A stretch of 37,100 bases of DNA, taken from IMG/VR virus record IMGVR_UViG_2718218139_000003. The stretch is one strand, 5' to 3'. This stretch comes from a virus (Duplodnaviria > Heunggongvirae > Uroviricota > Caudoviricetes). Below the pieces are notes generated by a model that was given only the letters and a program-made list of their open reading frames with translations, was not told where the DNA came from and ran no database searches. Below, one piece after another: positions 9,614 to 33,939 of this stretch. The translations under genes were made by a program, and so were the position numbers. The stretch's first letter is position 1; the number at the start of each line of letters is the position of its first letter.

Positions 9614-9769
9614 TTTAACGTATGTCGCCAATTTCCTGATGAAGGTGACTGGCGACTTGCTGTTGTATGTCCTTCTCAGAAAATTGTTTTTGAATAACAA
9701 ACAACAGGATTTTATAATCTCTTAACCTTATAATATGTGTGGTCTGAAATAATAATTAAGGAGATTATC

Positions 9770-10342
9770 GTGCTGTCTTACTTAATGGCAATTCACTTTG
9801 TTTTATTTGGGAACTCTACTAATTTAAAAAACTTCTGGAAATATGAAGTAATTCGGCGGAAACGTATGGATATCTGGAGGCTTTTAAGAGAGAAAAAACA
9901 GCGTAACCGGAATTTCCTTTTCTGGTGGCGGTTGGCTAACGAAATGTATATTAATGGTAATAAATTACATAAGAAAGCAGCCAAAAAGTTAAACAGTAAA
10001 ATAATTAACAAATTTGGTTGTGAAATTGGATTGGGCGCAAATATTGGAAAAGGGTTAACAATTCCCCATCATGCTGGAATTGTTGTTCATTTTGCTGTTG
10101 ATGCTGGTGAAAATCTGGTGTTACGACAGAATACTACCATTGGACAGATAGATGGTGACATGCCTGGTTCAAGAGTAAAAATTGGTAGTAACGTTGATAT
10201 CGGAGCTAATTGTTGCATCATTGGATTATCACGTAAAATTGGGGATAATGTAAAAATAGGTGCAATGTCTTTTATAAATAAAGATATACCATCGAACTGC
10301 ACATATATAACTAAAAAGAGCGGTGTTGTATTGTATAAATAG
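9770..10342 (+). CDS. Hexapeptide-repeat acetyltransferase (CysE/WcaB/NodL-like left-handed beta-helix), AT-rich cargo gene
   Basis: Strong RBS taaggag 7 bp before GTG 9770; [LIV]-G-x-x-x-x-I hexapeptide repeats (IGANIGKGLTI, IGSNVDIGANCCIIG, IGDNVKIGAMSFI); markedly lower GC than flanking phage genes. Confidence 0.7.
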   Translation: MLSYLMAIHFVLFGNSTNLKNFWKYEVIRRKRMDIWRLLREKKQRNRNFLFWWRLANEMYINGNKLHKKAAKKLNSKIINKFGCEIGLGANIGKGLTIPHHAGIVVHFAVDAGENLVLRQNTTIGQIDGDMPGSRVKIGSNVDIGANCCIIGLSRKIGDNVKIGAMSFINKDIPSNCTYITKKSGVVLYK

Positions 10343-10385: not shown

Positions 10386-10964
10386 TTATTGTGGGGCGAC
10401 TGGCCACTCAACATCCGCTGCTACCGCTGTATTAACACGATTCAACAATACCCGGTATGTCTTCCATGCAGCCAGTAACGATGCCTCTTCCTCCGTTGCA
10501 ATATCCAAATCTACGGCATCCTGAAGTGGCGCAATATGCTCGCTGGCTACCTGCATCAGGCTGTTTTTTGTTTCTTCCGCCTCCCTTATCCGAAACAGTT
10601 TTTCTGCTTCTGCATCTTTCACCCAGGATGTGCCGTTCCACTTCTGATACTCTCCATCCGGCGACAACCAGGTAACATTTTCCGGTAATGGACCGAGTTC
10701 AGAAATAAATAACGAGTCCCCTGATGCCACGTCATAAACCGTTTTACCCCGATGGTCTTCAACGAGATGCCACGATGCCTCATCACTGTTGAAAACGGCC
10801 ACGAAGCCAGCCGGAATATCTGGCGGGGCAATATCGGTACTGTTTGCAGGCAGACCTGTATGAGGTGGAATGTATGCATCACCTTCACCAATAAACTCAT
10901 TGGTTCCGGTCAGTAGATTATAAATTTTTATGGTCCGTGATTGTTCACTCATTCTGAATGTCAT
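10386..10964 (-). CDS. G: Tail fibre assembly protein (P2 gpG / Tfa-like)
   Basis: 192 aa directly downstream of the tail fibre gene. Confidence 0.75.
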
Positions 10965-13101
10965 TATGCAAGCCTCACAATATAGTTAAATGCGATGTTT
11001 TTTACGGTGTTTTCTGCGTTCCCCGTAGCATTAACGGTGATGGTGTGTCCGTGGGGACCAATAATGACAGAATGGGCATGAGCACCAATGCCGATAGTGT
11101 GGTTATGGGCACCGATATATACATTGTGAGCATGCCCTCCTGCGCTCGACGTGGTACCAGTACCTAACGCAGCGTTATAACCGGCTGATACACCATTCCC
11201 CGCGCCAGTGTGACCAACAGGTATATTGTGTGAATGAGCTCCTGCGCTATTTGTGGTTTTTGTGCCGTAATCAAATGAACTGGTCGTTTTAGTACCGTAA
11301 TCAAACGACGATGTGGTTTTCGTCCCCAAATCAGTACTGGATGCGCTGGCGCTGTGGGTGTGCGATTTAATGCCGTCCTGTTCCTGAGACAATACGGCAC
11401 GACCACTGGCAGGTTTGCCCTTGATAGTCCAGCCACGCATATCAGGGATCACGCCTGACGGATAAGCGACTGCAAGTTTCGGGTATGCAGATTTGTCAAA
11501 AGTCTGCCCTTGCATCAGGGCATAACCAGACGGAACGGTATCTGATGGCCACGGAATCGGTGCACCGACTGGATAAAACTCTTCAGGAGGATGAGCCGAG
11601 GTGTAAAGCTGCGCCCACGGCGACCAGTTTGCGTCGGTCGTATCCCGTCGTGAACGAATAAATGCCGGAGCATGAGCACCGCTTATACCACTCCAGCCGA
11701 TGAGTAATTCGCCTTCGCCAACGGCTGTCATCCCTTTCAGGTGAATGATATTTCCATACGTTGTTGGATATCCGTTGTTATACGCCTCGTATAACTCCAG
11801 ACCTGTGGCCCCCTGCATATTATCTGTCAGGGCGGTCAGCCGACCTTTTGAAGCCAGATTAACTGACGATACTGCTGTCCCATCTGACGGTAACGCCCCG
11901 ATCTCTGATGCTGTTGGCTTATTCCTGGAGTTATAGTCCCTTCGCCAGCCAGGAGCATAAGCATCACCATGATTAATATAAGTAAATTGAGCATTAGGGA
12001 TGCCTTCACCGCTGGATGTACTCGGTGTGGTAATGCGTATGGTCATTGCGCCGCGGGTGCCAATAACTTCCACAACAGCACCTGCAAGACAAATATTTCC
12101 GCAACCTGTATCTGTAATGACCTTATTACTTGCATAAGCCCATGAGCCTTTGCACATCCAGTAAGGATGGTTAAATGCCCCCTGACTCTCTAGCCAAAAA
12201 ATCAACTGCGCAGTTGTCCATGCTTCACTATCTCCACCAATATTCAGCTCTGCACTATATGCACGGCAGGCACCGATATTTTTCGTAAAGGTGTCTTTGT
12301 CAGAGATATCCTCACCATTCTTAGCTTTCTGCAGACGTTTTTCAGCATTGTCATAGGCAGCTTTTACTGCATTTGATGTTGCCGCCAGCGTTTCAGATGT
12401 ACTGTTGGTTGCACTACTAAGCTGGACAAGGCCTTTTCGCGCTGTTGTTGCGTCCTGAGCGGTATATTTCCCGTTAGCAAGGTCATGTCATAGGCTGTCT
12501 TGACCGCTTTCGGCGTTGCGGCCAGTGCTTCAGACGTGCTGTTAGTGGCGCTACTGAGTTGAACAAAGCCTTTTGCGGTCAGCGAGGCGTCCGGGTGACG
12601 TCGTGACTGTTCATGTTCTTTCAGTTTGTCATTCACGTAATCCACTGTGGCCATCACCATGGTGTTATCCACGGTAAGCGCCACGGTAGCAGTGCTGGAT
12701 ACGGTCAGAATGGTGCGAAATGTTTGTGCACGTCCGGACCCCTCGGCAACGGTTGGTTTGTAACTTTCGGCAGTATTGCCCACCGCGATTAAATCGCCGT
12801 GCTCATCAAATACACCAATTTCCCGGATCCAGAATCCGCCCGTTTCAGGAGGAATAACCAGCTCCGCAATAATGCGGTTCTGATGTGTTGCGTCCAGGAT
12901 GACGCGATTAACAGTATGTCGCCACACCTCATGCACCAGACGGGTCTGCTTACTGTCTGGTGTGGGCAACGTGCCGCCACCGTCGCCCACGGCCATGTGA
13001 GTCAGGCGGACAGGATTACCATCTGGCGCGGCTGCCTGAGCTAATTTTTTGGCACCAGTATCAGTGATAATGGTTTTAAATTTTCGTGTTGTGGTACTCA
13101 T
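10964..13101 (-). pseudogene. H: Tail fibre protein (P2 gpH-like) disrupted by a 1-nt frameshift near 12477; N-terminal frame 12364-13101, C-terminal frame 10964-12500
   Basis: N-terminal ORF reads ...[15 protein letters not shown] then goes out of frame; the other frame continues ...[34 protein letters not shown]..., i.e. a second copy of the internal repeat; restoring one G rejoins the frames. Confidence 0.75.
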
Positions 13102-13103
13102 GC

Positions 13104-13667
13104 TTAATCGTCCGGATAAATGGTAATGACTTCACCGTCGTAAGTTGCTGCCGCCGCGAAAATATCCCCCGGGATCTCCTGAATGATATTCAGCCCTGTC
13201 ATGTGGCGGCTGACCGGGCGGGCATCAGCAATCAACCGCTCCATTTCCAGATACATTTCCTCCGTCACGCCACTGTCCAGCGTGCCGACTTCAACGGTAA
13301 ATGTTCCCGGTTCTCCGCCGAACTCCCACCACTCAGACACACGAATGAGGTATCCCAGCGGCTCAATGGCCCGGCGCAGTGCGCTGATGGTCCCTTTGTG
13401 TCGGTGTATCAGCCATGCATCACGAATCACCTGTCGCTTTGTCTCTTCCGGCCAGTTGCGATCCCAGCGGTCAACGGAAAATGCCCAGGCGAGATAAGGC
13501 AGCAGATGCACCGGGCAGGTGTCCGGCGACCACAGCGTGTTGAGGTCTACCGGAATGTCTGTAATGCGCGTTCCGACAGCTTCGGCACAACGCATGAAAT
13601 TGCTGGCTGATGGCGGTAACAGTGAATTACTCATTACGCCCACCTTCGCTGATGGTGAATGACTCAC
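13104..13667 (-). CDS. I: Baseplate protein (P2 gpI-like)
   Basis: Synteny and size. Confidence 0.7.
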   Translation of the reverse strand: MSHSPSAKVGVMSNSLLPPSASNFMRCAEAVGTRITDIPVDLNTLWSPDTCPVHLLPYLAWAFSVDRWDRNWPEETKRQVIRDAWLIHRHKGTISALRRAIEPLGYLIRVSEWWEFGGEPGTFTVEVGTLDSGVTEEMYLEMERLIADARPVSRHMTGLNIIQEIPGDIFAAAATYDGEVITIYPDD

Positions 13668-14523
13668 AGCGCGCCGCCTGTATGTCGCTGATGGCCATAT
13701 TTTGTGTGGGTTCGATTATCTCCACGCGTTGCACACCGTGCACATGCAGTGCGGCAGCAATGGCTGACAACGCCACGTCCTGACCGATAAGCCCCTGCTC
13801 AGACAGCCACTTCCTGAACGACGATTCCGCCGCGGCCAGAATAGGTTCGGATTCCGGGCCGGGGTAAAAGTACAGTTTTGCATTCAGCCGCCATGTCACG
13901 ATTCTGGCACTCTGTACGGTCAGGCGGTCGGCCACCGGGCGGGTATCCTCTGCATTCAGAACGGCGCGAACGGTATTAAGCAACGCCTCCGTTGCTGTGC
14001 CGTCGCCCTCAGTGGACAGGATGGAAACCGTCACGTTGGCCGGAGACGGGCTGATGGCCCGCGCATCGCGTACCAGACCGCTGGCGCTGCGTGCAAAATA
14101 CTCGTATGCACCTGACGGGCCAGCAACACTCAGACCGTCATATGCCCGTTGCGCCCGTAGTCTCAGCGAGGTGTCACTTTCCATCACTGCGTCGGTGGTA
14201 TCCGTTGCCGGAGTGATAACCAGGCGCTTTGTGTTCATATTGCCCGCGAGGTTGTCCAGGTCTGTCCCGGCGCTGTGGCTTAGCATGCAGGCGCGTGCAC
14301 CCTCATTGACCCGCTGGCGTAACAGCATTTCACGAAAAGACATGGTTTGAGCGATAACGTTCAGGGGTTCCGATTCCAGCTCCAGCGCGGCGGAGACGGC
14401 TTCACGCTGTTCGGCAGGATAGGACGCAATCATCATGGCCTTTGTGTCAGCCAGAATTGCCTCAAAATCAGGCTCCGCGATGATGGCGGGTTCCGGTAAC
14501 TGGGAAAGGTCAACAGCAGGCAT
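13627..14523 (-). CDS. J: Baseplate protein (P2 gpJ-like)
   Basis: 298 aa; synteny. Confidence 0.75.
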   Translation of the reverse strand: MPAVDLSQLPEPAIIAEPDFEAILADTKAMMIASYPAEQREAVSAALELESEPLNVIAQTMSFREMLLRQRVNEGARACMLSHSAGTDLDNLAGNMNTKRLVITPATDTTDAVMESDTSLRLRAQRAYDGLSVAGPSGAYEYFARSASGLVRDARAISPSPANVTVSILSTEGDGTATEALLNTVRAVLNAEDTRPVADRLTVQSARIVTWRLNAKLYFYPGPESEPILAAAESSFRKWLSEQGLIGQDVALSAIAAALHVHGVQRVEIIEPTQNMAISDIQAARCESFTISEGGRNE

Positions 14524-14526
14524 GAT

Positions 14527-14877
14527 TTACTCTCTCAGTGTGATGGTTAATTCAACATTCTGCATGGTCTGCATGACAGTGCCCGACAGCGTCACCCCGG
14601 CGCGGCCTCCTGCCTTCCAGACAACGTCGATGGCGTCCAGGGCAATGCGGGGTTCCCATCGTGTCAGCGCAATCACGGCAGCACTCATGCATTGCAGACG
14701 AGTTGTGTTATTCATGGGTTCGTCAATCAAATCAGGCACAAGGCTGCCATATTCCCGTCGCATAACCCGGCTTGCCAGCGGGGTGGTCAGGATGTCCCTG
14801 ACTGACTGTTTCAGGTGCTCCGTATCGTTCAGGTTTCCCGTCCCGTCCGGATTCATTCCTGTGTAGCGGGTTGTCAC
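14527..14877 (-). CDS. W: Baseplate wedge protein (P2 gpW-like)
   Basis: 116 aa; synteny. Confidence 0.75.
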   Translation of the reverse strand: MTTRYTGMNPDGTGNLNDTEHLKQSVRDILTTPLASRVMRREYGSLVPDLIDEPMNNTTRLQCMSAAVIALTRWEPRIALDAIDVVWKAGGRAGVTLSGTVMQTMQNVELTITLRE

Positions 14878-15455
14878 TGCGGGCCTCCTGTCGAATCGCT
14901 GCCGCCTTTCACGCCACCGTGTTTATGCGTATGCACGGTAATACCGTTTGAGGTGAAGTTGCCGCCGCTGTGCGTGATATTGCCGCTCATCTTTCCCCCT
15001 TTTGTGACGTCAAGCGTCGCCGTTCTCAGAAGGTCTGTGCATTCCACGACGGGCGTGTCCAGTGTCACGCTGACGGATGCCTGCAGGCTGGCTGTTTTCA
15101 TGCCGCTGGCGCTCAGTGCGCCTGCGTCCGCGTCGTAGCGGAACACCGCGCCATCCGGCGCGCTGACCACGATTTCTTTCAGGCTTTTGCCGGGGGCCGG
15201 ACTGGCATCACTCCACAGGCTGCCAATTATCATGGCGGTTTCCGGGTTGCCGCCAATGCAGGCAATTACCACCTGTTCGCCTGGTGATGGCGGCAGCCAC
15301 ACATTGAAGGCTCCCGCGCGCGTGGTGTTCCAGCGCAGCCAGCCTGTTTCCAGTTCGCCGCTGCGAACGCGCACGCGCCAGGACTTTTCATCAACTTCAG
15401 AGATGATCCCGGTGCGGATGATATTGCTCAGCAGTCGCATGAGTTCTGCGCTCAC
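14874..15455 (-). CDS. V: Baseplate spike/assembly protein (P2 gpV-like)
   Basis: 193 aa; synteny. Confidence 0.7.
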   Translation of the reverse strand: MSAELMRLLSNIIRTGIISEVDEKSWRVRVRSGELETGWLRWNTTRAGAFNVWLPPSPGEQVVIACIGGNPETAMIIGSLWSDASPAPGKSLKEIVVSAPDGAVFRYDADAGALSASGMKTASLQASVSVTLDTPVVECTDLLRTATLDVTKGGKMSGNITHSGGNFTSNGITVHTHKHGGVKGGSDSTGGPQ

Positions 15456-16096
15456 CGTACAGCCTCCGCAATCCGGCCCAGCACCGTGTTATAAATCAGG
15501 CGTTCATCTGCCTGACTGATGCCCAACAGCTCACGTACCGGGTAATCGGTGAAAATGCCCGGCGCAACCTGATCGCGCTCACCGAACTGATGAACGCGTG
15601 CAATACGTGCGGCCACGCCGCTGTAACCCACCGTCACACCGGAAGCATCTGCACGGGCTTTCAGGTAGCGGGCGGTGCGCAGTTTTACGAACATGGGGAC
15701 GCGCTTTGTGCTGTCCTGGTTGATGCGCCGGGTGCGTATTTCCAGAAAACGGTCGATGTCATCCCGGTAAAACGTGCGGATATTGTTTTTATCCTCATCC
15801 CACCCGGTAATGGTTCGCCCGTATTTCCCCGTGTCGTGATGCCAGTTTTTCAGCGTGCGTGCTTCGTTATTCCAGATAAAGCGAATGCGCTCCTGTATCC
15901 GGGTTACGCGGCGTCTGCGTGGTGTCCATGCGGTCCCGTCCGGCGCTTTCTGTGACCGGATACGTGCCTGCTGGGCGCGGCGTAAATCCTGTGCCAGCTT
16001 TCTGGCGATGTTATTGATGGCCTGCTGATTCAGGCTGTCGCGGATAGCCTCAAAGGTTTCATCCACGCGGGTGAATGCCTTATCCATCGCTTTCAC
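15452..16096 (-). CDS. S: Virion morphogenesis / tail completion protein (gpS-like)
   Basis: Position between R and V; overlapping start/stop with neighbours. Confidence 0.6.
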   Translation of the reverse strand: MKAMDKAFTRVDETFEAIRDSLNQQAINNIARKLAQDLRRAQQARIRSQKAPDGTAWTPRRRRVTRIQERIRFIWNNEARTLKNWHHDTGKYGRTITGWDEDKNNIRTFYRDDIDRFLEIRTRRINQDSTKRVPMFVKLRTARYLKARADASGVTVGYSGVAARIARVHQFGERDQVAPGIFTDYPVRELLGISQADERLIYNTVLGRIAEAVR

Positions 16097-16547
16097 CCCA
16101 CGTCACATCCTGGAATACATGCGACCAGTCGCCTTCGGAAGAGGGCAGACGGGGTTTTGGCTCCGGCAGGTGTTCTGCCTGCGGTGTGCCCTGACTGCTG
16201 CGCGTGATGCGAACGCGTTCCCGCAGGGGGAGCGTAAACAGGAGATCGGCGCTGTCATCGTCATTGATAACGGCGGAAAATTTGATGTCCTGATTACGCT
16301 CCGGATTGAGCAACAACTGTGGCTGATTTTCGGATAACCACGCCAGCAGCGGCAGCGTGAGGTCGTCCAGCTCTCCGGCGTAATCCATGACAAACATCAC
16401 CATCTGATAGCGGTAAACAAACGAGGGCGTTTCTCCGGTCGTTTCAATGTTGCCGCTCTCCACGAAAATGGTGAATTTTTCCGGGTTAGCCTGACACCAT
16501 CGGCATGAACGGGTCATGGCTTCACGCAGGGAATCAGTTTTCAGCAT
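16080..16547 (-). CDS. R: Tail completion protein (P2 gpR-like)
   Basis: 155 aa; synteny. Confidence 0.65.
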   Translation of the reverse strand: MLKTDSLREAMTRSCRWCQANPEKFTIFVESGNIETTGETPSFVYRYQMVMFVMDYAGELDDLTLPLLAWLSENQPQLLLNPERNQDIKFSAVINDDDSADLLFTLPLRERVRITRSSQGTPQAEHLPEPKPRLPSSEGDWSHVFQDVTWGESDG

Positions 16548-17091
16548 GGTTGTTGTCCTCGTTGTTCAGTCGTTGCAGCCTGCGCTGTTCCAGTAATTCA
16601 ATGGCCCGTTTATCCGCGTTACAGGTTTCCAGTGCATCCAGAAGGCGGTCGCCCCATATACCGAGATTTCCCCATGTGGGAGTATCAGGGAAGGGGGAGG
16701 CATTACCGGCATGGTCAGCGTCTGCGGTATAAGCCGGACTGACGGCGCTGGCCGTGGCGCGTTCTGCGTGCCTGCGCAACCTGTCAGTAAAACGAGCGTC
16801 AGGCAAAGCGTGGGCGCATTCATCTTTTGCAATATCGTTGCGTAGCTGTTCACGTCTGGCCTCTCCGTCCTGATTTCGCTGTTGATTTTCCACGCGAAGT
16901 TGCGCCAGCACCTGCTGCATATCCTGTACCCCGGCGCTGATGATATTCAGGGTGTCGACTGTACTTTTCAGGGTGCTGGCCTGTGCTTCGTTTCTGGCGT
17001 TCTCCTGGCCAAGCGACCATGACAGACGCATGGATGTTCCCCATGCGGCAATCAGAATGAAAGCGACACCCAGCGTGGGCCAGAGCTTCAT
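16534..17091 (-). CDS. Inner-membrane spanin (Rz / LysB-like); start taken at MKLWPTLGVAFILIAAW with ATGA overlap to the endolysin stop
   Basis: N-terminal TM segment, coiled-coil periplasmic region, fully contains an out-of-frame lipoprotein ORF. Confidence 0.65.
   Translation of the reverse strand: MKLWPTLGVAFILIAAWGTSMRLSWSLGQENARNEAQASTLKSTVDTLNIISAGVQDMQQVLAQLRVENQQRNQDGEARREQLRNDIAKDECAHALPDARFTDRLRRHAERATASAVSPAYTADADHAGNASPFPDTPTWGNLGIWGDRLLDALETCNADKRAIELLEQRRLQRLNNEDNNHAEN
16566..16823 (-). CDS. Outer-membrane spanin lipoprotein (Rz1 / LysC-like) embedded in the +1 frame of the i-spanin gene
   Basis: MNAPTLCLTLVLLTGCAG: signal peptide with LTGC lipobox; Pro-rich mature region. Confidence 0.6.
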   Translation of the reverse strand: MNAPTLCLTLVLLTGCAGTQNAPRPAPSVRLIPQTLTMPVMPPPSLILPHGEISVYGATAFWMHWKPVTRINGPLNYWNSAGCND

Positions 17092-17480
17092 GCCGGATAG
17101 GCTCCGTGTGGTAACTGAAAATGCGGTCCGTCTTTCAGGGTCTTCCAGTCGCCGCCCCATTCCACCGGAATATTCAGTTCCCGGCTGGCCTGTCTGAATG
17201 CTGCTGCGATTTTTTCGTACAGCGGCCATTCCCATGACACCTGGCTGCCGATATAAGCCACAACATCCACGGCATGTCCCGTAAGGTGGCGGCTGTTCAT
17301 GGTCTGGCTCTTACCTGTGGCCACAAGTTGCTTCTGGCGGTAACGGCTGCGCAACCCTTCGGTGATACCAAAATCCACTTCCGAAATTTCCAGTGCCCGT
17401 CGGGTCACTTTCACCAGATCAGGATTTACGCCCTGCAAATTCTTTTCGCTCCGGCTGCTGAATTTAAATGTGTTGCTCAT
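17088..17480 (-). CDS. Endolysin, peptidase M15-type (L-alanyl-D-glutamate / D-Ala-D-Ala peptidase fold)
   Basis: 130 aa; SRHLTGHAVDV motif characteristic of zinc peptidase M15 endolysins; located in the lysis cassette. Confidence 0.7.
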   Translation of the reverse strand: MSNTFKFSSRSEKNLQGVNPDLVKVTRRALEISEVDFGITEGLRSRYRQKQLVATGKSQTMNSRHLTGHAVDVVAYIGSQVSWEWPLYEKIAAAFRQASRELNIPVEWGGDWKTLKDGPHFQLPHGAYPA

Positions 17481-17800
17481 TCGTCCTTCTCCTTCACCCT
17501 GCGATTAAAGGCCGCAATAACCTTGTCGCGTGCTTTCTCTGCACCCATAAAACCGATTGATGCGCCGATAAACGTCACGGCATCTTCAGGAAACCCGAAG
17601 AAGCGCAACGACCCGGCCACGGCCATGGCAAGAACGCCGCACGCCAGCGATCCCGTTACGGTCTGAACCAGTGTTCGTCCGTCATAAAGACTCATCAGCG
17701 CGGAAATGCTGACTGCCGCGCCTACTGCATACACCGTTGGCAGGTGGTCAAAGAGCCATGCAATAACCTGCTCTGTGATCCCTGTTTGAATGGTGCTCAC
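17477..17800 (-). CDS. Holin (two predicted TM helices); GTG start at 17800
   Basis: Small protein with two hydrophobic helices and charged C-terminus immediately upstream of the endolysin. Confidence 0.55.
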   Translation of the reverse strand: MSTIQTGITEQVIAWLFDHLPTVYAVGAAVSISALMSLYDGRTLVQTVTGSLACGVLAMAVAGSLRFFGFPEDAVTFIGASIGFMGAEKARDKVIAAFNRRVKEKDE

Positions 17801-17802
17801 TG

Positions 17803-18003
17803 CTACTCCCCCCACAACTGAATCATTTCTCGTTTCTTCTTCTCCGGCTCCGGCATCTCCACTTCCTGCCCGGCGTCCAGAAATACCTGCTGACAGAGTC
17901 CGGGGTTGGCATCCAGCACCTTTTCGGTGACGCCCTGCGTCGTGCCGTAGAACCGGAAACAGAGCGAATCCACGGTGTCGCCTTCCTGTGCCTTCACTTT
18001 CAT
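17803..18003 (-). CDS. X: Tail protein X (P2 gpX-like)
   Basis: MKVKAQEGDTVDSLCFRFYG... small protein between L and the lysis genes. Confidence 0.65.
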   Translation of the reverse strand: MKVKAQEGDTVDSLCFRFYGTTQGVTEKVLDANPGLCQQVFLDAGQEVEMPEPEKKKREMIQLWGE

Positions 18004-18506
18004 CAGCACAACTCCGCAAAGATTCGCGGGCGGCACAGAATGTCAGAGATGGCCCAGCTCACATCGCGCCACAAATCCGATGTCTGTATATCCAGTGCGT
18101 CCGCCCGGCGGTCGCCCTTGTCCGTTGTGTCCGCATCGCGGTAACGCTCCAGAATCAGGGCGCGTGTGGCGGTGTAAACCGCATTGCGCCAGTGCCAGAG
18201 ATTGACGCTTTCTCCGTTAATTACGGGTGCCGGAACATCGGCCAGCGTCTGATGGCCAGCCGTCTGCTGTTCCTGCTGCCACGCTTCCAGCTCGCGGGTA
18301 ACGTGTGCCACGGCCCCGGTGGCGGTATGCAGCAGGCGGGAGGTGGTCACACGGCCCGGCAGTCGTATCGCCAGACGCAGCTCACGCAGCACAATATCCG
18401 GCCAGAATGCACCCGCTGAAATACGGGTATCACCATCATCGGTATCGGTGATGTCGTCCTCTGCGGGTCCGGGGTTGGTTCTGGCAACCATACTCATGGG
18501 GTTCAC
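18003..18506 (-). CDS. L: Head completion/stabilisation protein (P2 gpL-like)
   Basis: 167 aa; synteny. Confidence 0.7.
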   Translation of the reverse strand: MNPMSMVARTNPGPAEDDITDTDDGDTRISAGAFWPDIVLRELRLAIRLPGRVTTSRLLHTATGAVAHVTRELEAWQQEQQTAGHQTLADVPAPVINGESVNLWHWRNAVYTATRALILERYRDADTTDKGDRRADALDIQTSDLWRDVSWAISDILCRPRIFAELC

Positions 18507-18598
18507 TCCTGAAAAAATCGGGCGGTGGGTGCGCGGTGTAAACGGTCACGGAGTCAAACCGGAACACCGCGCACGCCGCCCGCTGACGGGGTCAGTCG

Positions 18599-19399
18599 TT
18601 AACCGCGCTTCGCCTTCTGCGTCGCGGTGGTTTTTCGTGTTGCAGGCTTCCGCGTTGTCTTTTTACTTTTGCTGCTTTCGTCCTGCGCCTGCGGTGTGCT
18701 GGCATCTTCTGGTGCGGCTGCGGAATCGGCTTTTTTCAGGGCGCGGGAAAGGGTTGCAATCTCGCGTTTCACGCCTGCGTTCGGGTTCAGGTGCATCGCT
18801 TCGCGCAGCAGCTTCAGTGACAGGGCCATGCTGTCCGCATCACTCAGACCACGACGGGCAAAGGCGCACGCCTTGCATAATTTGGCGCGCACTTCGTCCG
18901 GCATGTCCTGGTCTGTGACAATCTCCCGGAGGGTGTCCAGTGGTTCGATAAAGGCGGACAAATCTGCGTCGGCATCCGTCCCGGCCTGTGTCAGTACCGG
19001 GTTGCAGATTTCTTCGGTCAGTACCGTGGCAGCAGTACGGCCAAAGTTATCCGGCATGATGAGGTTGTGACGGACCACATACGCACCAATACGCAGCGCC
19101 AGCGGAAGATCGCCGCAGTCAATCGCCCACACCATCAGCGTGGCAATCACTTCATCCTGCTGCCCGCCGTCAGCCTCCAGCGTTCCCTCAATCCAGCCGG
19201 AAAAGTCCGGCAACAACTCTTTTTTGATGGCGGCTTTCGCACTTCTGGCCTGTACGCCATTAAGCCGGGCCTGTGCCAGACGCAGACGATACAGCACCTC
19301 TTCATGCGCGGTACGCGCGGCGTGGTCAACGCCTTCATTCGCCCGGCCTGCGCGCTGTGCCATCACGTTCTGCCAGTGTTGCTGTGCAGGAGTAATCAT
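18599..19399 (-). CDS. M: Terminase small (endonuclease) subunit (P2 gpM-like)
   Basis: Synteny between N and L; basic C-terminus. Confidence 0.7.
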   Translation of the reverse strand: MITPAQQHWQNVMAQRAGRANEGVDHAARTAHEEVLYRLRLAQARLNGVQARSAKAAIKKELLPDFSGWIEGTLEADGGQQDEVIATLMVWAIDCGDLPLALRIGAYVVRHNLIMPDNFGRTAATVLTEEICNPVLTQAGTDADADLSAFIEPLDTLREIVTDQDMPDEVRAKLCKACAFARRGLSDADSMALSLKLLREAMHLNPNAGVKREIATLSRALKKADSAAAPEDASTPQAQDESSKSKKTTRKPATRKTTATQKAKRG

Positions 19400-19444
19400 T
19401 TTTTCTCTCCGTTACAGGCGGGCATGATGCCCGCCGTGAGTTGA

Positions 19445-20497
19445 TTAGCTGTCGGCGAACTTCAGGCCAGTGACCATCGCGCACTTGCCATAGTCTTCAA
19501 CGACATAAGCGTCATTGATGGACTGGTAGGTGGCGATGCGGTTGTATTCCGGTTCGTCTTTCATCAGACGACGCATTGAACCTTTCTGCCAGTAAATCGA
19601 CAGGTTGTTGAATGAGGTGATCAGCATCGTTGCATCCGGGAAGAACGGCGCAAGGAACACGCCCAGCCCGCCAATGGTGCGCGATGACAGGATGAGCTGC
19701 CCGGCAAGTAATTCCGCATTGGGATTCTGGCCGCTGATGCTGTTCAGCACGGGCAGACGCAGCGAGTTAAACAGGTTGCGCCCCATAATCACCACGAGGT
19801 CGTCAGCTTCCTTGTGCCATTCATCCAGCAGGGATGAGCGCGCGTCCTGTACCAGTGCATCAGGGTTCGCATACTTACCCGCGTGCGCCACGGTGTTGTC
19901 CATGTTGCGGGAGGTCAGCGTCACGTCATTCATTACGCGCTCGCTGGCGTCGGCTCTGATGTGCTCCAGCCATCCCACGTTAACGTCCTGAAGCAGTTTG
20001 TTAGTGCTGAAGTTGGACTCATCTGCGTGAGACGTGCCGTTGAAACCGATCATGATGCGGTCAAGCGCCACCTGCCGGGCAATCTGTGCGCTGATGCGAG
20101 ACTGAAAATCGCTGTGTGCCGACCAGGCATCAAGCTGCGGATACGAAATAAACGTGTCGTAGTTCACCTGTTCGCACTGGTATTTGCGGTTTTTCAGATC
20201 AACCACGTTATTCGGGTTACGGCGTTTTGTGCCGTCATAACTGGTATTCGTGCGCGCAATCGGTCCTGTGGTATCCAGGAGGATTTTTTCGCCTTTCTGG
20301 TCGGTCACGCCGATCACGTTAATTCTTTTCGTTAATTCTGTGCTGTCCTTTGAGGCGTTTTCAAAACGCTGCTGCACCGCGGGTTCCACGGTAAATCGCG
20401 ATACCAGTGCAGATACCGGGATATTGTTAAGCGACGCCTGCTGCGCCATATAGCAACCCAGCTTGTTGCGGGTAATATCTGACATCACCAGATTCAT
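19445..20497 (-). CDS. N: Major capsid protein (P2 gpN-like)
   Basis: 350 aa; synteny. Confidence 0.8.
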   Translation of the reverse strand: MNLVMSDITRNKLGCYMAQQASLNNIPVSALVSRFTVEPAVQQRFENASKDSTELTKRINVIGVTDQKGEKILLDTTGPIARTNTSYDGTKRRNPNNVVDLKNRKYQCEQVNYDTFISYPQLDAWSAHSDFQSRISAQIARQVALDRIMIGFNGTSHADESNFSTNKLLQDVNVGWLEHIRADASERVMNDVTLTSRNMDNTVAHAGKYANPDALVQDARSSLLDEWHKEADDLVVIMGRNLFNSLRLPVLNSISGQNPNAELLAGQLILSSRTIGGLGVFLAPFFPDATMLITSFNNLSIYWQKGSMRRLMKDEPEYNRIATYQSINDAYVVEDYGKCAMVTGLKFADS

Positions 20498-20519
20498 AAA
20501 AATTTGCTCCTTTGTCTTA

Positions 20520-21356
20520 TCAGAAGTCAGCCAGCTGGTCGGAGGCTGCGCCTGTTGCGGTGAACCGGTTCTGCGGATCGCCGTCCTGCGTGCGCAGTTT
20601 TTCCTTCAGTGCTGTCAGCTCTGTGGTCAGTGACGTAATTTTCTGGCGGTCCTGCTGATGGCGGGTTTCCAGCACATTAAAACGGTCGATAATGTCGGCC
20701 TGTGACGTTGCGACGCCTTCCACCGCTTCCTGAATACGGGAAAAACTGGCGTCATCCGCTTTGCGGCCACGGCCAATAATCCCCATTACGCGGTTAAACC
20801 ACTGGGTGCCTTCTTCCTGGCGTTGTTCTGCCATTTCGATGATTTCAGACTCGATGGCTTCGGAGATAAGCGGCGCTTCACCCTGGACACTGTTGAACGT
20901 CATTACCGCCTGACGTTGCTGTGCCGTGAATTTCAGGCGCTCAGTGCCCAGGCTTGCCGGGGTGTCGGTCATCGCCAGCCCGACCAGATAGGCGCGCCCG
21001 TTAACGGAGAACTGCGGGTGCAGTTCGATACTGGAATAGATTTTCTTGCCGTCCGCGACAAGCTGCTTCATGCGCTCGGTCGGTTCGATTTCTGCATACA
21101 GCGCAGTACGTCCGGCCAGCGGACCTTCCGTAATGTCTTCCGTACTCAGTGCGGTGACATCGCCCATTGCGGAAAATTCGCTTGACGGGCATGGCGAGAG
21201 ATAGTGCTCAACGTTCACGCGGGCAGCGTAAACATCCGGGTTGAAGTTCTCGGCGGCTTCACGCAGATGCACCGGACTGATTTCACGGCCATCAACAGTT
21301 GATCCGGAGACAGCCACGCGAAACTTTTTGCGGGATGTCTTTTTTTCATTAGCCAT
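20520..21356 (-). CDS. O: Capsid scaffolding protein (P2 gpO-like); start taken at MANEKK with RBS agagggg
   Basis: Synteny; divergent from terminase P. Confidence 0.75.
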   Translation of the reverse strand: MANEKKTSRKKFRVAVSGSTVDGREISPVHLREAAENFNPDVYAARVNVEHYLSPCPSSEFSAMGDVTALSTEDITEGPLAGRTALYAEIEPTERMKQLVADGKKIYSSIELHPQFSVNGRAYLVGLAMTDTPASLGTERLKFTAQQRQAVMTFNSVQGEAPLISEAIESEIIEMAEQRQEEGTQWFNRVMGIIGRGRKADDASFSRIQEAVEGVATSQADIIDRFNVLETRHQQDRQKITSLTTELTALKEKLRTQDGDPQNRFTATGAASDQLADF

Positions 21357-21510
21357 AGTTTTTGCCCCTCTGACTGGTTCTTCAGTCATGATGGCAAAGC
21401 GTAACAGGCTGATACAAAGGGCTTTTGTTGTAAGAAAACGGCCAGAACAGGGGGTTAAGGAGAACGGTTTCGCGCGCGGGTAATCTTCCTGTAATTACTC
21501 AGGGGGAGCA

Positions 21511-23262
21511 ATGATTCAGGACGCTTTTGTGCGCCAGCGTGCGCGGCAACTTTACTGGCAGGGTTATCCGCCCGCAGAAATATCACGTCTGATGGGAATA
21601 AACCCGAACACGATTTATGCGTGGAAAAAACGCGACCAGTGGGATGAAACGCCCCCCGTGCAGCGTGTCACGCAGTCCATCGATGCGCGCCTCATCCAGC
21701 TTACTGAAAAACAGAATAAAACAGGCGGTGACTTTAAGGAAATAGACCTGCTGACCCGGCAGCTTAAAAAGCTGCATGATGGCCAGCCGGATGTGATGGC
21801 CGCAGGAAAGAAAGGCCGGGCGAAAAAACTTAAAAATCATTTCACGCCGGAACAGATTGCCGCACTGCGGGAAAAAATCATCAGCAGGCTGGAGTGGCAT
21901 CAGCGGGGCTGGTTTGACTCCCTGACACTTTGCAGGGAAGCCGGGATACGTAACAGGATGATCCTGAAATCCCGACAGATTGGGGCGACCTGGTATTTTG
22001 CACAGGAAGCTCTGCTGATGGCGCTGCGTGACGATGTGGCGCAACCTTACCAGCGTAACCAGATTTTTTTGTCTGCGTCGCGTCGTCAGGCGTTCCAGTT
22101 TAAAAGCATTATTCAGAAGGCCGCGGCTGAAGTTGATGTGGAGCTGAAAGGGGGCGATAAAATCATCCTCTCCAACGGCGCAGAGCTGCATTTTCTCGGC
22201 ACTTCTGCTGCGTCGGCACAGTCCTATACGGGCAATTTTTATTTTGATGAATTTTTCTGGGTCAGTCGCTTTGCTGAACTGCGCAAGGTGGCTGGCGCTA
22301 TGGCAACCCTCAGCGGACTGCGGCGCACCTACTTCTCCACACCATCCACCGAAACGCACGAGGCGTACGCCTACTGGAACGGCGACCGCTGGAACGAGAA
22401 AAAGGCCTCGCATAAACGCCAGCGTTTTTCTGTGGACTGGAAAACGCTGCATAACGGGCTTATCTGCCCTGACCGGACTTGGCGGCAAATTGTCACGCTG
22501 GAAGATGTGGTTAATCACGGCTGGAAACACACCGATATCGACGAAATTCGTGATGAAAACACCGAAGACGAGTTCCTCAATCTCTATATGTGTGAGTTTG
22601 TCCGCGAAGGGGAATCGGCATTTAACCTGAATATCCTGATTGGCTGCGGTGTTGACGGATACGACGACTGGAAAGACTGGAAACCTTTTGCTCCCCGCCC
22701 GATGGGGAATCGTCCGGTATGGATTGGGTATGACGCAAACGGCAGCAGTGGCAACGGCGACAGCGGTGCTGTGTCCGTGGTGGTTCCTCCGGCTGTTCCT
22801 GGTGGCCGTTTTCGAACGGTGGAGACGCGACGCGTTCAGGGGCTGGAGTTTGAAGAACAGGCCAGAGTCATTGAAGAGTTCACGTGTCGCTATAACGTGG
22901 AACACATCGGCATTGATGTGACGGGCGGGAACGGGGAGGCTGTTTATCAGATAGTGAAACGGTTTTTCCCTGCTGCTATTCCGTACACCTTCACGCTGTC
23001 ATCAAAACGGTCGCTGGTACTGAAAATGCTGCAAATAATGCGTGCCGGGCGGTGGGAATACGATCGCGCCGAACGCGAGCTGGTCGCGGCCTTTAACGCC
23101 GTGCGTAAGGTGAAAACACCGGGCGGCTTTATCACTTACGAAACGGACCGCGCGAGGGGGATCAGCCACGGCGACCTTGCGTGGGCAACCATGCTTGCTG
23201 TCATTAACGAACCGATTGGCGGCGAAGGAGAAAACGAGCGTTTCACGGTTATGGAGTTCTGA
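21511..23262 (+). CDS. P: Terminase large (ATPase) subunit (P2 gpP-like)
   Basis: 583 aa; divergent from the O gene; overlaps the portal start. Confidence 0.8.
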   Translation: MIQDAFVRQRARQLYWQGYPPAEISRLMGINPNTIYAWKKRDQWDETPPVQRVTQSIDARLIQLTEKQNKTGGDFKEIDLLTRQLKKLHDGQPDVMAAGKKGRAKKLKNHFTPEQIAALREKIISRLEWHQRGWFDSLTLCREAGIRNRMILKSRQIGATWYFAQEALLMALRDDVAQPYQRNQIFLSASRRQAFQFKSIIQKAAAEVDVELKGGDKIILSNGAELHFLGTSAASAQSYTGNFYFDEFFWVSRFAELRKVAGAMATLSGLRRTYFSTPSTETHEAYAYWNGDRWNEKKASHKRQRFSVDWKTLHNGLICPDRTWRQIVTLEDVVNHGWKHTDIDEIRDENTEDEFLNLYMCEFVREGESAFNLNILIGCGVDGYDDWKDWKPFAPRPMGNRPVWIGYDANGSSGNGDSGAVSVVVPPAVPGGRFRTVETRRVQGLEFEEQARVIEEFTCRYNVEHIGIDVTGGNGEAVYQIVKRFFPAAIPYTFTLSSKRSLVLKMLQIMRAGRWEYDRAERELVAAFNAVRKVKTPGGFITYETDRARGISHGDLAWATMLAVINEPIGGEGENERFTVMEF

Positions 23263-24308
23263 TGAGCAGAAAAAATAAAAAAGTGCGCATGAGTTCACGC
23301 ATTGATCTCGCTGATGCGCTCAGGAAAGAATCATCGCTCAGTGCATTCACATTTGATGGTCCTTATCGCCTGACCGGGCATGACCTGCTGGATAATATGT
23401 ACTGTGCTGATAACGGGCGGTGGTATGAAACCCCGGTGGACTGGTACGGTCTGGCAAGAGCTGCCCGGCAAACGTCCTGGCATCAGTCTGCGCTTTACTT
23501 TAAGCGCAATGTATTACTCGGTTGCTACATCCCGCACCCGCTGCTTTCCCGGCAGGATTTCTCGGCGCTGGCGCTGGACTGGTTTGTGTTCGGTAACGCA
23601 TTCCTTGAGCTTCGTAGCAATATGCTCGGCGAACCGCTTAAATTACGGCACGCCCTGGCGAAATACATGCGACGCGGAAGCGATCTTGAATCATGGTGGT
23701 ATGTGCAGGATGGCAAGGACGCGTTCCAGTTTCGCCCTGGCAAAGTGTGCCACCTGATGAATCCGGATATTAACCAGGAAATCTACGGCATGCCGGAATA
23801 TCTTGGCGCATTACTCTCGGCCAGCCTTTCTCATTCGGCGGACATGTTCAGAAAACTGTACTACGACAACGGATCCCACGCCGGGTGCATCATCTACATC
23901 GGTGCAGCGCAGGTAAACCGCGAAAGCATGGACTCCCTGAAAGAAACGTTACAAGGTGCGCGTGGTGGTGGTGCGTTTAAAAACGTGCTCATCCACGCGC
24001 CCAACGGGGGCAAAGAGGGGGTGCAAATTTTGCCGTTCCAGCAGATCACCGCAAAGGATGAGTTCATGAATGTTAAGGCGGCATCCCGTGATGATGTGCT
24101 GGCTGCGCACCGCGTTCCGCCGCAACTGATGGGGGCAATGCCGGGCGAAAAAAGTGCGTTTGGTGATGTGGAGAAGGCCGCGCGGGTTTATGCAATTAAC
24201 GAGCTGATGCCCGTTATGGAGGCCATGAAGCACATCAATGACTGGCTTGGCGAAGAGGTGATCCGTTTTAATTCTTATGCTCTTCTTGATGAAAAAACAG
24301 CCCCGTGA
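23262..24308 (+). CDS. Q: Portal protein (P2 gpQ-like)
   Basis: 348 aa; follows terminase P. Confidence 0.8.
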   Translation: MSRKNKKVRMSSRIDLADALRKESSLSAFTFDGPYRLTGHDLLDNMYCADNGRWYETPVDWYGLARAARQTSWHQSALYFKRNVLLGCYIPHPLLSRQDFSALALDWFVFGNAFLELRSNMLGEPLKLRHALAKYMRRGSDLESWWYVQDGKDAFQFRPGKVCHLMNPDINQEIYGMPEYLGALLSASLSHSADMFRKLYYDNGSHAGCIIYIGAAQVNRESMDSLKETLQGARGGGAFKNVLIHAPNGGKEGVQILPFQQITAKDEFMNVKAASRDDVLAAHRVPPQLMGAMPGEKSAFGDVEKAARVYAINELMPVMEAMKHINDWLGEEVIRFNSYALLDEKTAP

Positions 24309-28083: not shown

Positions 28084-28268
28084 TCACTCGTGGTTATCAG
28101 GCAAAGGTCGCGGCTGTTTGCGGCTCTGTGTCCAGTTCTGCATTTCATCACTGTTGTTTTTTGCCTGTTTGTCACGCAGCGAACGCATCAGCGCCCGGCG
28201 TTCGTGCCGTTTCAGTGAGTGCAGCCATTCGTTCACTTCAACACCGTCAGGGATCTGCGGCCACGGTG
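28084..28268 (-). pseudogene. A: Replication initiation protein A, C-terminal 61 codons separated from the rest by the IS600 insertion
   Basis: Frame joins in-frame to 29533-31648 when the IS and one copy of GTG are removed. Confidence 0.7.
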
Positions 28269-28332
28269 TGAGGTAGCCTGAGTTTAACGGACACTCCTTC
28301 CTGAAATAGAATGGCATCAGAAGGAGCTAATA

Positions 28333-28635
28333 ATGAGCAGAAAAACCCAACGTTACTCTAAAGAGTTCAAAGCCGAAGCTGTCAGAACGGTTCTTGAAAA
28401 TCAACTTTCGATCAGTGAAGGCGCTTCCCGATTATCTCTTCCTGAAGGCACTTTAGGACAATGGGTTACCGCCGCCAGAAAAGGGCTCGGTACTCCTGGT
28501 TCCCGCACGGTGGCTGAACTGGAATCTGAAATTCTGCAACTGCGTAAGGCGTTAAATGAAGCTCGCCTTGAGCGAGATATATTAAAAAAAGCAACAGCGT
28601 ATTTTGCACAGGAGTCGCTGAAAAATACGCGTTAA
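28333..28635 (+). CDS. IS600-like transposase OrfA; A AAA AAA -1 frameshift site at 28584-28590
   Basis: Identical protein to 4384-4686. Confidence 0.8.
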   Translation: MSRKTQRYSKEFKAEAVRTVLENQLSISEGASRLSLPEGTLGQWVTAARKGLGTPGSRTVAELESEILQLRKALNEARLERDILKKATAYFAQESLKNTR

Positions 28636-28670
28636 TCGAACAATGGCGACAACAATTTCCCATTGAAGCG

Positions 28671-29489
28671 ATGTGTCAGGTATTTGGTGTATCCAGGAGC
28701 GGTTATTACAACTGGGTACAGCATGAACCCTCAGACAGAAAACAAAGTGATGAGCGGCTAAAACTGGAGATTAAGGTGGCACATATCCGCACTCGCGAAA
28801 CATATGGAACCCGGCGGCTCCAGACGGAGCTGGCAGAGAATGGCATCATCGTTGGTCGTGACCGACTGGCACGTCTTCGTAAGGAGCTAAGGCTACGCTG
28901 TAAGCAGAAACGCAAGTTCAGAGCGACTACGAACTCGAACCACAATCTGCCAGTTGCGCCAAATCTGCTGAACCAGACGTTCGCTCCTACAGCACCAAAT
29001 CAGGTCTGGGTGGCGGACCTGACGTATGTTGCCACACAGGAGGGATGGTTGTACCTCGCTGGCATCAAAGATGTTTATACGTGCGAAATTGTCGGCTACG
29101 CCATGGGAGAGCGCATGACAAAAGAGCTGACAGGTAAAGCCCTGTTTATGGCGCTCAGGAGCCAGCGCCCACCTGCCGGGCTAATCCACCACTCTGATCG
29201 AGGTTCACAGTACTGCGCATACGATTACCGGGTCATACAGGAGCAGTTTGGTCTGAAAACATCAATGTCGCGTAAAGGTAACTGTTACGACAACGCTCCG
29301 ATGGAAAGCTTCTGGGGAACGCTGAAAAATGAGAGCCTGAGCCACTATCGTTTTAATAACCGGGATGAAGCCATCTCAGTAATACGGGAATACATTGAGA
29401 TTTTCTACAATCGTCAGCGTCGTCACTCTCGTCTGGGGAATATCTCCCCGGCAGCCTTCAGGGAAAAATATCATCAGATGGCTGCTTAA
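28671..29489 (+). CDS. IS600-like transposase OrfB
   Basis: Identical protein to 3530-4348; frame open from 28572, overlapping orfA in -1 frame. Confidence 0.8.
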   Translation: MCQVFGVSRSGYYNWVQHEPSDRKQSDERLKLEIKVAHIRTRETYGTRRLQTELAENGIIVGRDRLARLRKELRLRCKQKRKFRATTNSNHNLPVAPNLLNQTFAPTAPNQVWVADLTYVATQEGWLYLAGIKDVYTCEIVGYAMGERMTKELTGKALFMALRSQRPPAGLIHHSDRGSQYCAYDYRVIQEQFGLKTSMSRKGNCYDNAPMESFWGTLKNESLSHYRFNNRDEAISVIREYIEIFYNRQRRHSRLGNISPAAFREKYHQMAA

Positions 29490-29532
29490 AAAAAGAACAA
29501 ATGGTAGTGTCCGCTATTGCCAGTACACCTCA

Positions 29533-32323: not shown

Positions 32324-32644
32324 GGTGTGGCCTCTTTGCTAGTAAGTTTTGAAAACTCACCATCCAGAGCTGCGAAACTGTGGGTGGCGAGACGTACGAG
32401 GTTCGCAGTACCGGCTAGCAAAGAACCCGGCCCGACCGAAGTCGGCCCCGTACGCCCCGCCATAATTCGTGTGCGAAAAAGACGTGGCAATACAGTACGC
32501 ACAAAAAAACCGCTGGCGCGGTTGTGCGCTTTGCTAGTCAGCAGGCTGCGAAACCCGGCACCCGTTTTATGAGGTGCAGCGGGAATGTAACCTGACTGAT
32601 TGCGGCATGGCAAGCGGTTTTTTGTGTGTGCATGTTCTGGTTTC

Positions 32645-32944
32645 TTACTGGTTCAGAAAAAAATCAAAAACCTTGTCAATGCGTTGCAGCAGCTCTTGCT
32701 GTATTGCTTCCGGTGTTTCCGGTTCGCCTGGCGCCTCCAACGTCGCGCAGAAATCAGCGATTTCATGATGGAGCGTCAGGCGAATGGCAGGAGCCGTGGT
32801 TCTGGCGTGCTCCGGCTCATCCAGCAGTGCCAGCACAGCAGACGGCGAGAGCATTGCGCGAAATGCCAGTAATTTTTGAGGCGTTGCCATTCGTTGCAGG
32901 GCAAATGCCAGTTCGCGTAGCTTCTGGTGGTTGATGGTGCTCAT
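32645..32944 (-). CDS. Hypothetical early-operon protein, 99 aa
   Basis: ORF, 4-bp overlap with upstream gene. Confidence 0.45.
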   Translation of the reverse strand: MSTINHQKLRELAFALQRMATPQKLLAFRAMLSPSAVLALLDEPEHARTTAPAIRLTLHHEIADFCATLEAPGEPETPEAIQQELLQRIDKVFDFFLNQ

Positions 32945-33407: not shown

Positions 33408-33430
33408 TGCGCCCCCTTTGTCCAGTAACC

Positions 33431-33847: not shown

Positions 33848-33939
33848 TTTATATCTCCGTTATTTACGTGTGCGAATACCTCCGCGAATGCGGATAGTTT
33901 TCAGGTTTTCGGGTTTAATCTGGTGTTTTGTTTAAGCTG

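Follow-up and report, generated by a model that had tools for sequence, protein, structure and literature searches.

An arrangement resembling an embedded two-component spanin was found in the window, the whole 37,100-nucleotide stretch of prophage DNA analysed here. We consider it best explained, with a probability of roughly two in three, as a native overlapped lysB/lysC pair in which a real decay mutation has shortened a run of six C to five. As judged by alignment with relatives, the nesting of one reading frame within the other is an artefact of this 1-bp deletion in the C6 run. By the same comparisons, the locus is assigned to a known spanin type, the lysB/lysC pair of a P88-like (Xuanwuvirus, P2 family) prophage; its genes were already known, and nothing about them is new in kind. 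An earlier note on this DNA had proposed a two-component spanin locus at this site, and that part of its proposal was borne out, in the form of the lysB/lysC pair of a P2-like prophage.

The lysis module and its nested reading frame

The genes around the lysis module all lie on the minus strand, in the late-gene order of P2:

18599-19399, minus strand: terminase small subunit gpM (P88 and H3 annotation of the matching gene)
18003-18506, minus strand: head completion gpL (P88 and H3 annotation of the matching gene)
17803-18036, minus strand: tail protein X (PF05489)
17477-17800, minus strand: holin, 107 aa, intact, lambda-S-type (PF05106 Phage_holin_3_1, 71.1 bits, cut-off 23.8; PHROG 126 holin/anti-holin, 1.7e-35)
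17088-17480, minus strand: M15 endolysin, 130 aa, intact (PF13539 Peptidase_M15_4, 46 bits, cut-off 25; PHROG 465 endolysin, 5e-77)
16693-17091, minus strand: lysB-derived part of the 185-aa ORF, LysB residues 1-133 with anchor and periplasmic domain (tblastn, PHROG 214, hydropathy)
16693-16697, minus strand: C5 homopolymer (G5 on the plus strand), site of the 1-bp deletion relative to C6 (alignments with relatives)
16692-16853, minus strand: 5' part of lysC in the +1 frame, with signal peptide, lipobox LLTGC and Pro-rich linker; LysC 1-44 from ATG 16823 (tblastn, Pfam)
16566-16691, minus strand: out-of-frame tail of the nested ORF, 41 codons and a stop in the third frame, which is neither that of lysB nor that of lysC (translation)
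16534-16692, minus strand: 3' part of lysC in the lysB frame, LysC 45-96 and stop, with the conserved TWGNLGIWGDRLLDALETCNADKRAIE motif (tblastn, Pfam, PHROG 3001)
16080-16547, minus strand: tail completion gene gpR (PF06891 P2_Phage_GpR, 137 bits)
15452-16096, minus strand: gpS (PF05069)
downstream of gpS, minus strand: baseplate V, W and J (P88 annotation)

The holin is identical at 107/107 residues to that of the Escherichia coli H3 prophage and at 106/107 to that of phage P88, and the endolysin matches both at 130/130. The lysis cassette had been described in the earlier note as intact; this stands for the holin and the M15 endolysin and fails for the o-spanin, whose C-terminal 52 residues have been lost to the i-spanin. 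The product of gpR, a gene that gives context and lies outside the lysis module, is identical to that of H3 at 155/155 residues; the first 14 nt of the gene are shared with the end of lysC, as they are in relatives.

The 185-aa ORF runs on the minus strand from an ATG at 17091 to its end at 16534, and its start codon shares the sequence ATGA (17091-17088) with the endolysin stop. Its hydropathy, taken over a 19-residue window, peaks at residues 3-21 (LWPTLGVAFILIAAWGTSM; mean Kyte-Doolittle value, 1.49), and the remainder is hydrophilic; a single N-terminal transmembrane anchor and a periplasmic domain, the features of an i-spanin, are present. The ORF matches PHROG 214 ("Rz-like spanin") at 3.8e-52.

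A second ORF, carrying the lipobox, lies wholly within the first (16566-16853 inside 16534-17091), its frame being offset by +1. It may start at GTG 16853, which has GGAGAGG plus 6 nt upstream, or at ATG 16823, and it stops at 16566, giving 85-95 aa depending on the start. Translation confirmed both ORFs, as well as the placement of the lipobox ORF (LLTGC) in the +1 frame of an Rz-like gene, as first noticed. The segment LCLTLVLLTGC agrees with both the PROSITE-type lipobox pattern and the [LVI][ASTVI][GAS]C consensus taken from Kongari et al. (PMC6139136). The lipobox Cys is residue 16 (ATG start) or 26 (GTG start) and is followed at +2 by Ala, not Asp. Neither start places a Lys or Arg in the first seven residues; the GTG start gives a Lys at position 10. 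By this pattern check the ORF has the lipoprotein signal peptide and lipobox Cys of an o-spanin, with predicted sorting to the outer membrane. The earlier note had held its reading to the presence of a valid signal peptidase II site, and the lipobox passes; lying upstream of the frameshift, it survives the change, so a check of the lipobox is blind to the damaged gene.

The first 44 residues of the nested ORF are identical to the N-terminus of LysC in close relatives, and on this basis the ORF is not a product of chance. Since the o-spanin ORF sits fully inside the i-spanin ORF, the window belongs to the embedded class, but formally only. In the overlapped class, the o-spanin gene runs past the i-spanin stop. 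This is not so in the window, where the lipobox ORF stops at 16566 and the outer ORF at 16534, but it is so in H3, P88, 569R5, Kp4845-1, and P2, and also in the window after one C is added in silico.

LysC homology in two frames

The Pfam LysC family (PF23793, 69 positions) is matched in the window by two pieces that lie in different frames and meet at nt 16692. Residues 12-44 of the nested ORF cover model positions 2-32 (16.3-16.8 bits), and residues 134-165 of the 185-aa ORF cover positions 31-63 (22.9 bits), both short of the gathering threshold of 27 bits. The LysC of an intact relative covers positions 2-64 in a single stretch at 50.8 bits, and P2 LysC scores 64.9 bits. When intact LysC was searched against the window with tblastn, residues 1 to ~44 aligned in frame -1 from 16823 and residues 44-96 in frame -3 at 16695-16537, the latter with 100% identity. 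Intact H3 LysB aligned in one frame over 135 aa with 98.5% identity. In addition, residues 130-185 of the 185-aa ORF match PHROG 3001, as do intact LysC proteins. Because LysC homology changes frame at the C-tract, the 185-aa "i-spanin" is identified as LysB 1-133 fused to LysC 45-96; the nested "o-spanin" is LysC 1-44 followed by 41 residues of the third frame.

In the alignment with H3, CCTCCCCCCTT (H3) stands against CCTCCCCCTT (window), that is, C6 against C5 at 16693-16697. Tract lengths were compared in seven sequences, and C6 was also found in P88 and 569R5. When one C was restored in silico, LysB became 135 aa long, ending in GNASPLP and a stop, and LysC had 96 aa with the ATG start and 106 aa with the GTG start. 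The upstream LysC start is used by gene callers elsewhere, giving 106 aa (P0061).

In family searches of Pfam, PHROG, and NCBIfam with the nested ORF, its last 41 residues matched nothing. AlphaFold2 modeled this frameshifted tail without secondary structure at a low-confidence pLDDT of 43-47 (mean for the nested ORF near 50). In its model of intact LysC (P0061, from a 5-sequence alignment; mean pLDDT likewise near 50), residues 61-104 form a C-terminal helix. A predicted helix in the one and no structure in the other hint at a scrambled tail.

These observations bear on the possibility that the window carries a functional embedded spanin, with the 185-aa protein as a native i-spanin and the nested 85-95-aa lipoprotein as a native o-spanin, which we regard as highly improbable. 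The +1 frame, full nesting, valid lipobox, N-terminal anchor, and position after the endolysin all fit such a spanin, and the PHROG 214 match spans residues 2-170 of the 185-aa ORF. Annotation by PGAP is divided: the 185-aa ORF is taken as a normal coding sequence in STEC384 and ETEC1706, and one C5 allele is flagged as a pseudogene. However, the last 52 residues of the 185-aa ORF are 100% identical to the C-terminus of LysC and match the o-spanin models PF23793 and PHROG 3001, while the nested ORF falls below the LysC gathering score and ends in 41 residues without a match. The PHROG 214 match is itself affected, since the tail of that profile (positions 137-176) is matched by intact LysC, and the profile has therefore absorbed LysB-LysC fusions. 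Furthermore, C6 and overlapped genes are found in every isolated phage of the group, and no lambda Rz/Rz1 family was among the Pfam matches at E <= 0.01, where the two ORFs gave LysC and DUF2570 alone. A survey of spanins likewise saw no family with both embedded and overlapped members (Kongari et al. 2018, PMC6139136). The embedded reading is wrong whether C5 arose by mutation or by an assembly error.

Overlapped lysB and lysC in relatives

The closest relative, the E. coli H3 prophage, is 99.7% identical over 1.2 kb and one base longer than the window. PGAP annotates in it a 135-aa DUF2570 protein, the lysB equivalent, and an overlapped lysC that extends 14 nt into gpR and ends at the same stop as the 185-aa ORF of the window. 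In both H3 and P88, lysB stops at 135 aa, two codons past the LysB-derived part in the window. The lysis-region DNA of the P88/Xuanwuvirus phages and of the H3 prophage (WP_032197600.1; lysC, WP_423779428.1) is 97-99.7% identical, with the same lysB/lysC. The difference lies in the tract, with C6 giving a LysB of 135 aa and an overlapped LysC of 96-106 aa in these relatives and C5 standing in the window. The RefSeq record of P88 carries no lysC annotation.

Phage records were searched with 1201 nt of the window, and those spanning the whole query were one nt longer than the window in every case (12/12); these phages include P88, PhiR44_2, Chuche, 500465-2, 503458, 520873, and P884B11. LysC was uninterrupted in 13/13 phage records with full-length tblastn matches. 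A search of 5,426 complete E. coli genomes found the same genes in ~1,040-1,100 of them, depending on the query, and they also occur in isolated Xuanwuvirus phages. When 25 kb was compared with complete E. coli genomes, the best of the matches listed had 91% coverage and 96.6% identity. A sample of 60, spread over the 1,041 E. coli records with a match, contained 58 that were one nt longer than the window and two, ETEC1706 and RM12275-C1, that had its length. STEC384 and STEC379 are further cases of the window's length.

More distant systems share the overlapped layout. Klebsiella phage Kp4845-1, whose LysC is 47% identical, has a lysB of 123 aa and a lysC in the +1 frame that continues for 181 nt past lysB, up to gpR. 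No break separates its motif TWG...DRLIDALDSCNADKAAI from its own lipobox. The TWGNLGIWGDRLLDALETCNADKRAIE motif of the window's lysC 3' part aligns with P2 LysC. In P2, the reference for an overlapped two-component spanin (NC_001895; lysB 7922-8347, lysC 8202-8492), a lysB of 141 aa and a lysC of 96 aa overlap by 146 nt. In the form seen in its relatives, the locus resembles P2 in its order (holin, endolysin, lysB/lysC, R, S) and in having lysC inside lysB in the +1 frame; lysC extends past the lysB stop by 145 nt in P2 and 151 nt in intact relatives and runs into R in both. H3 LysC and P2 LysC are 32% identical (E = 7e-6) in an alignment that spans the frameshift site, and both belong to PF23793. 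The window copy differs from P2 in being -1 frameshifted and formally nested; another difference is its endolysin, which is an M15 peptidase and not P2 K, and lysA is absent.

BLASTP of LysB against P2 LysB gave no significant similarity (E = 2.1). With the NCBIfam model TIGR03495 (phage_LysB), H3 LysB scored 14.9 against a cut-off of 92.75; with NF038368 (P2_Rz1), H3 LysC scored 13.2 against a cut-off of 27, compared with 128.8 for P2 LysC. The window ORFs matched neither model. We therefore rejected the assignment of these genes as equivalogs of P2 LysB/LysC, since the window ORFs and the intact relatives alike fall under the NCBIfam cut-offs, and treat them as relatives only, classified here by Pfam and PHROG families.

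With C6 in the phages and most of the sampled E. coli genomes, and with the layouts of Kp4845-1 and P2, the native architecture is, on these comparisons, overlapped as in P2 and not embedded. A nested arrangement as a native, conserved state with full-length products was not found among these relatives. The "classic embedded spanin architecture" of the earlier note thus gives way to nesting caused by a 1-bp deletion, the pair being overlapped in 13/13 phage records, 58/60 E. coli genomes, Kp4845-1, and P2. The comparison with P2 lysB/lysC that the note itself had called for shows the overlapped arrangement, not the embedded one. We discarded the converse polarity, with C5 ancestral and C6 erroneous, since a LysC that follows the Pfam model, P2 LysC, and the Klebsiella homologue without a break results from C6 alone.

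The reference for embedded spanins, lambda Rz/Rz1, is alike in pairing an N-terminally anchored inner-membrane protein with a Pro-rich outer-membrane lipoprotein in the +1 frame. The position of the spanin genes after the endolysin is also lambda-like, as is, in the window as sequenced, the full nesting. However, nesting in lambda is native and conserved, whereas in the window it is a by-product of mutation and leaves the lipoprotein scrambled in its C-terminal half.

Protein databases contain related fusions. In a large protein collection, C5-type 185-aa fusions (P0001-P0004) have ~224 members, compared with ~2,900 in three large clusters of 135-aa proteins. Other 185-aa database proteins are LysB-LysC fusions at different sites, including sites near GGGG and AAAA runs, and LysB fused to the third frame is also on record (P0009, P0010), representing longer-tract variants. 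A length of 185 aa results whenever a -1 shift falls anywhere from the lysB start to the lysC stop, and these fusions are not a conserved design.

Origin and consequences of the shortened tract

The prophage is already dead from lesions other than the spanin frameshift. It contains two 1264-bp IS3-family copies that are 100% identical to each other. One lies in replication gene A (gpA) with a 3-bp GTG duplication, and the other adjoins a deletion of the P88-equivalent positions 32453-34808, by which the sheath N-terminus and tail gene D (gpD) are gone. The tail-fibre gene is frameshifted by a 5-bp tandem duplication. With the prophage already dead, the change in the spanin genes is most simply a neutral decay mutation.

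The missing C could alternatively be a homopolymer sequencing or assembly error, with a real tract of C6 and an intact overlapped pair, which we consider possible but rather unlikely. The change is a single-base indel in a C5/C6 run, and the exact 185-aa protein was on record nowhere else in an exact-sequence look-up. At least four flanking haplotypes carry C5 (window, STEC384, ETEC1706, and RM12275-C1) in assemblies from different studies, the tract varies in the other direction too (the third-frame fusions P0009 and P0010), and databases hold fusions at other homopolymers (GGGG, AAAA); all of this would suit recurrent error. On the other hand, the assembly does not seem indel-prone, as the C-tract indel is the sole 1-bp indel relative to P88 in an 11.9-kb block (12344-24283, 97% identity). 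Moreover, the two 1264-bp IS copies and the 5-bp tandem duplication are inactivating and impossible as base-calling errors; with three unambiguous inactivating lesions in the prophage, real decay is expected. We infer that the deletion is present in the DNA. A point against the decay reading is that 185-aa proteins of the C5 type are not very rare among the sequences of the large protein collection.

A regulatory role for the C-tract was also considered, either as a slippage switch turning the genes on and off (phase variation) or through +1 recoding at the wild-type lysB end, CCC-TGA. Under recoding, a +1 slip at CCC-TGA would move the ribosome into the lysC frame and yield a fusion nearly the same as the 185-aa protein, which C5 would then hard-wire. 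In E. coli, ribosomes can be prone to shift at CCC when a stop codon comes next. Consistent with a regulatory tract, length changes are recurrent on several haplotypes and in both directions, and lysB ends in Pro and a stop in H3 (CCC TGA), P88 (CCC TAA), and Kp4845-1 (CCG TGA), with lysC in the +1 frame. Yet five to six C is short for a contingency locus, and the ~3% frequency among complete genomes is what prophage decay would lead one to expect. The programmed +1 frameshift at CCC-stop was set aside, at a low residual probability, on two grounds: P2 lysB ends in CAG-TGA, so that the feature is not general, and the Pro codon and stop are already constrained by the F-P-D of LysC in the overlapping frame. 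A regulatory tract of either kind thus seems most improbable.

It is similarly doubtful in the extreme that the C5 allele is more than decay, be it a one-step change of overlapped into formally embedded genes (a step that the 2018 survey saw in no spanin family), a slippage switch, or a mimic of a +1-shift product of the wild-type phage. If the converted pair had kept some function, the LysB-LysC(45-96) fusion could act as a self-complemented or dominant-negative spanin.

Under the preferred reading, decay of an overlapped pair, an updated view of the lysis module can be proposed by analogy with lambda and P2. The holin would permeabilise the inner membrane, and the M15 endolysin would cut the peptidoglycan. 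In the intact form, a LysB of 135 aa, anchored in the inner membrane, and a LysC of 96-106 aa, tethered to the outer membrane by its lipid-modified Cys, would form a complex that bridges the periplasm and disrupts the outer membrane, probably by fusion with the inner membrane. With one C lost, lysB is read into the lysC frame, giving the 185-aa LysB(1-133)-LysC(45-96) protein. The lipoprotein enters the third frame after residue 44 and reaches an early stop, which leaves its gene nested. Its signal peptide, lipobox, and Pro-rich linker are preserved, but the conserved C-terminal 52 residues, including a conserved Cys, are lost; this domain, the part of LysC expected to contact the i-spanin, is now carried on LysB.

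By analogy, we predict that no functional spanin complex is made while the holin and endolysin remain intact. The spanin-null phenotype expected of the window allele follows from lambda genetics, in which Rz1 truncations upstream of ~residue 46 of 60 were lysis defective and frameshifts in either gene were among the recovered lysis-defective clones (PMC5295617). Two points count against the weight of this prediction: the requirement for the C-terminus varies between spanin families (PMC6139136), and lysB/lysC are recorded in the P2 annotation as non-essential timing genes. For lysis of the host by this prophage, the outer-membrane step would probably be lost.

Biologically this is minor: a P2-like prophage that was already dead has a further inactivating lesion. 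The allele shows that deleting one base can give an overlapped pair the geometry of an embedded one, although function is almost certainly lost in the process. For annotation, the case shows that a single-base indel can make an overlapped spanin pair pass all of the simple checks for an embedded one (nesting, +1 frame, lipobox, anchor, and neighbourhood), and the artefact was exposed only by comparing frames against family models and relatives. It is already in public resources: PGAP names the 185-aa fusion a "DUF2570 domain-containing protein," and PHROG 214 consists, over its C-terminal 40 positions, of what is in fact LysC sequence.

Frameshift fusions of lysB and lysC in public databases

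The overlap between the spanin genes lysB and lysC is an indel hotspot, in nature or in assemblies. Public data hold many distinct lysB-lysC frameshift chimeras (database proteins P0009, P0010, P0016, P0019, P0041, P0043, and P0053), with third-frame fusions at the C-tract also represented, and chimera junctions fall at other sites as well, near GGGG and AAAA runs. In both STEC384 and ETEC1706, PGAP labels the 185-aa fusion like any normal gene product ("DUF2570 domain-containing protein"), but in RM12275-C1 it calls it a pseudogene. Because intact LysC matches the C-terminal 40 positions (137–176) of PHROG 214, "Rz-like spanin" (1.8e-5), this i-spanin profile itself appears to include frameshift fusions.

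Annotation of lysC in intact relatives is incomplete. The PGAP lysC (sequence L001, 2371–2568) of E. coli H3, which carries the closest relative prophage, encodes 65 aa from an ATA start located 3' of the lipobox, and the annotated protein therefore has neither the signal peptide nor the lipoylated cysteine. The RefSeq record of Escherichia phage P88 contains no annotated lysC CDS.

Extent of the prophage

The left end of the window (1–2835) appears to comprise host DNA and a methylase gene; with an integrase at the right end, the window therefore covers essentially the whole prophage.

1–822, MFS/arabinose-exporter-like gene, partial
819–1814, flk
2044–2835, N6/N4 DNA methylase ORF
36081–37100, tyrosine integrase ORF, continuing past the right end

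Tail-fibre region

The tail-fibre gene is frameshifted by a 5-bp tandem duplication, ATGAC ATGAC (approximately 12480–12495, minus strand), such that its N-terminal ORF terminates at 12364, with the remaining part of the gene lying in another frame.

13101–10964, minus strand, tail-fibre gene, frameshifted
10964–12205, continuation ORF in the other frame, with a Collar domain
10386–10964, tail-fibre assembly protein (PF02413)
9737–10342, ORF with a weak, sub-threshold hexapeptide-transferase match

Segment 9620–12343 codes for an alternative tail-fibre C-terminus and at the DNA level is almost wholly unmatched in P88, the sole exception being 11930–12321, which corresponds to P88 26468–26859 in inverted orientation. 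No counterpart of the P88 DNA invertase was seen in this segment.

Disruption by two insertion sequences

The window carries two IS3-family insertion sequences of 1264 bp each, 100% identical to one another and in inverted orientation, which may be copies of IS600, given their size and ORF lengths.

3487–4750, minus strand, IS3-family copy 1 (NF033516; ORFs of 100 and 272 aa)
28269–29532, plus strand, IS3-family copy 2 (NF033516; ORFs of 100 and 272 aa)
4751–5212, sheath C-terminal fragment (PF17482), the sole remnant of the sheath gene

The first copy, whose junctions (3486/4751) show no target duplication, stands in place of the equivalent of P88 32453–34808, so that the tail sheath gene lacks its N-terminal part and tail gene D is gone. 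The second copy lies within the P2-type replication gene A (PF05840) at 28266–29535, flanked on both sides by a 3-bp GTG direct repeat equivalent to P88 8070–8072; the replication gene of the prophage is thus interrupted, its broken parts extending over approximately 26.7–31.6 kb.
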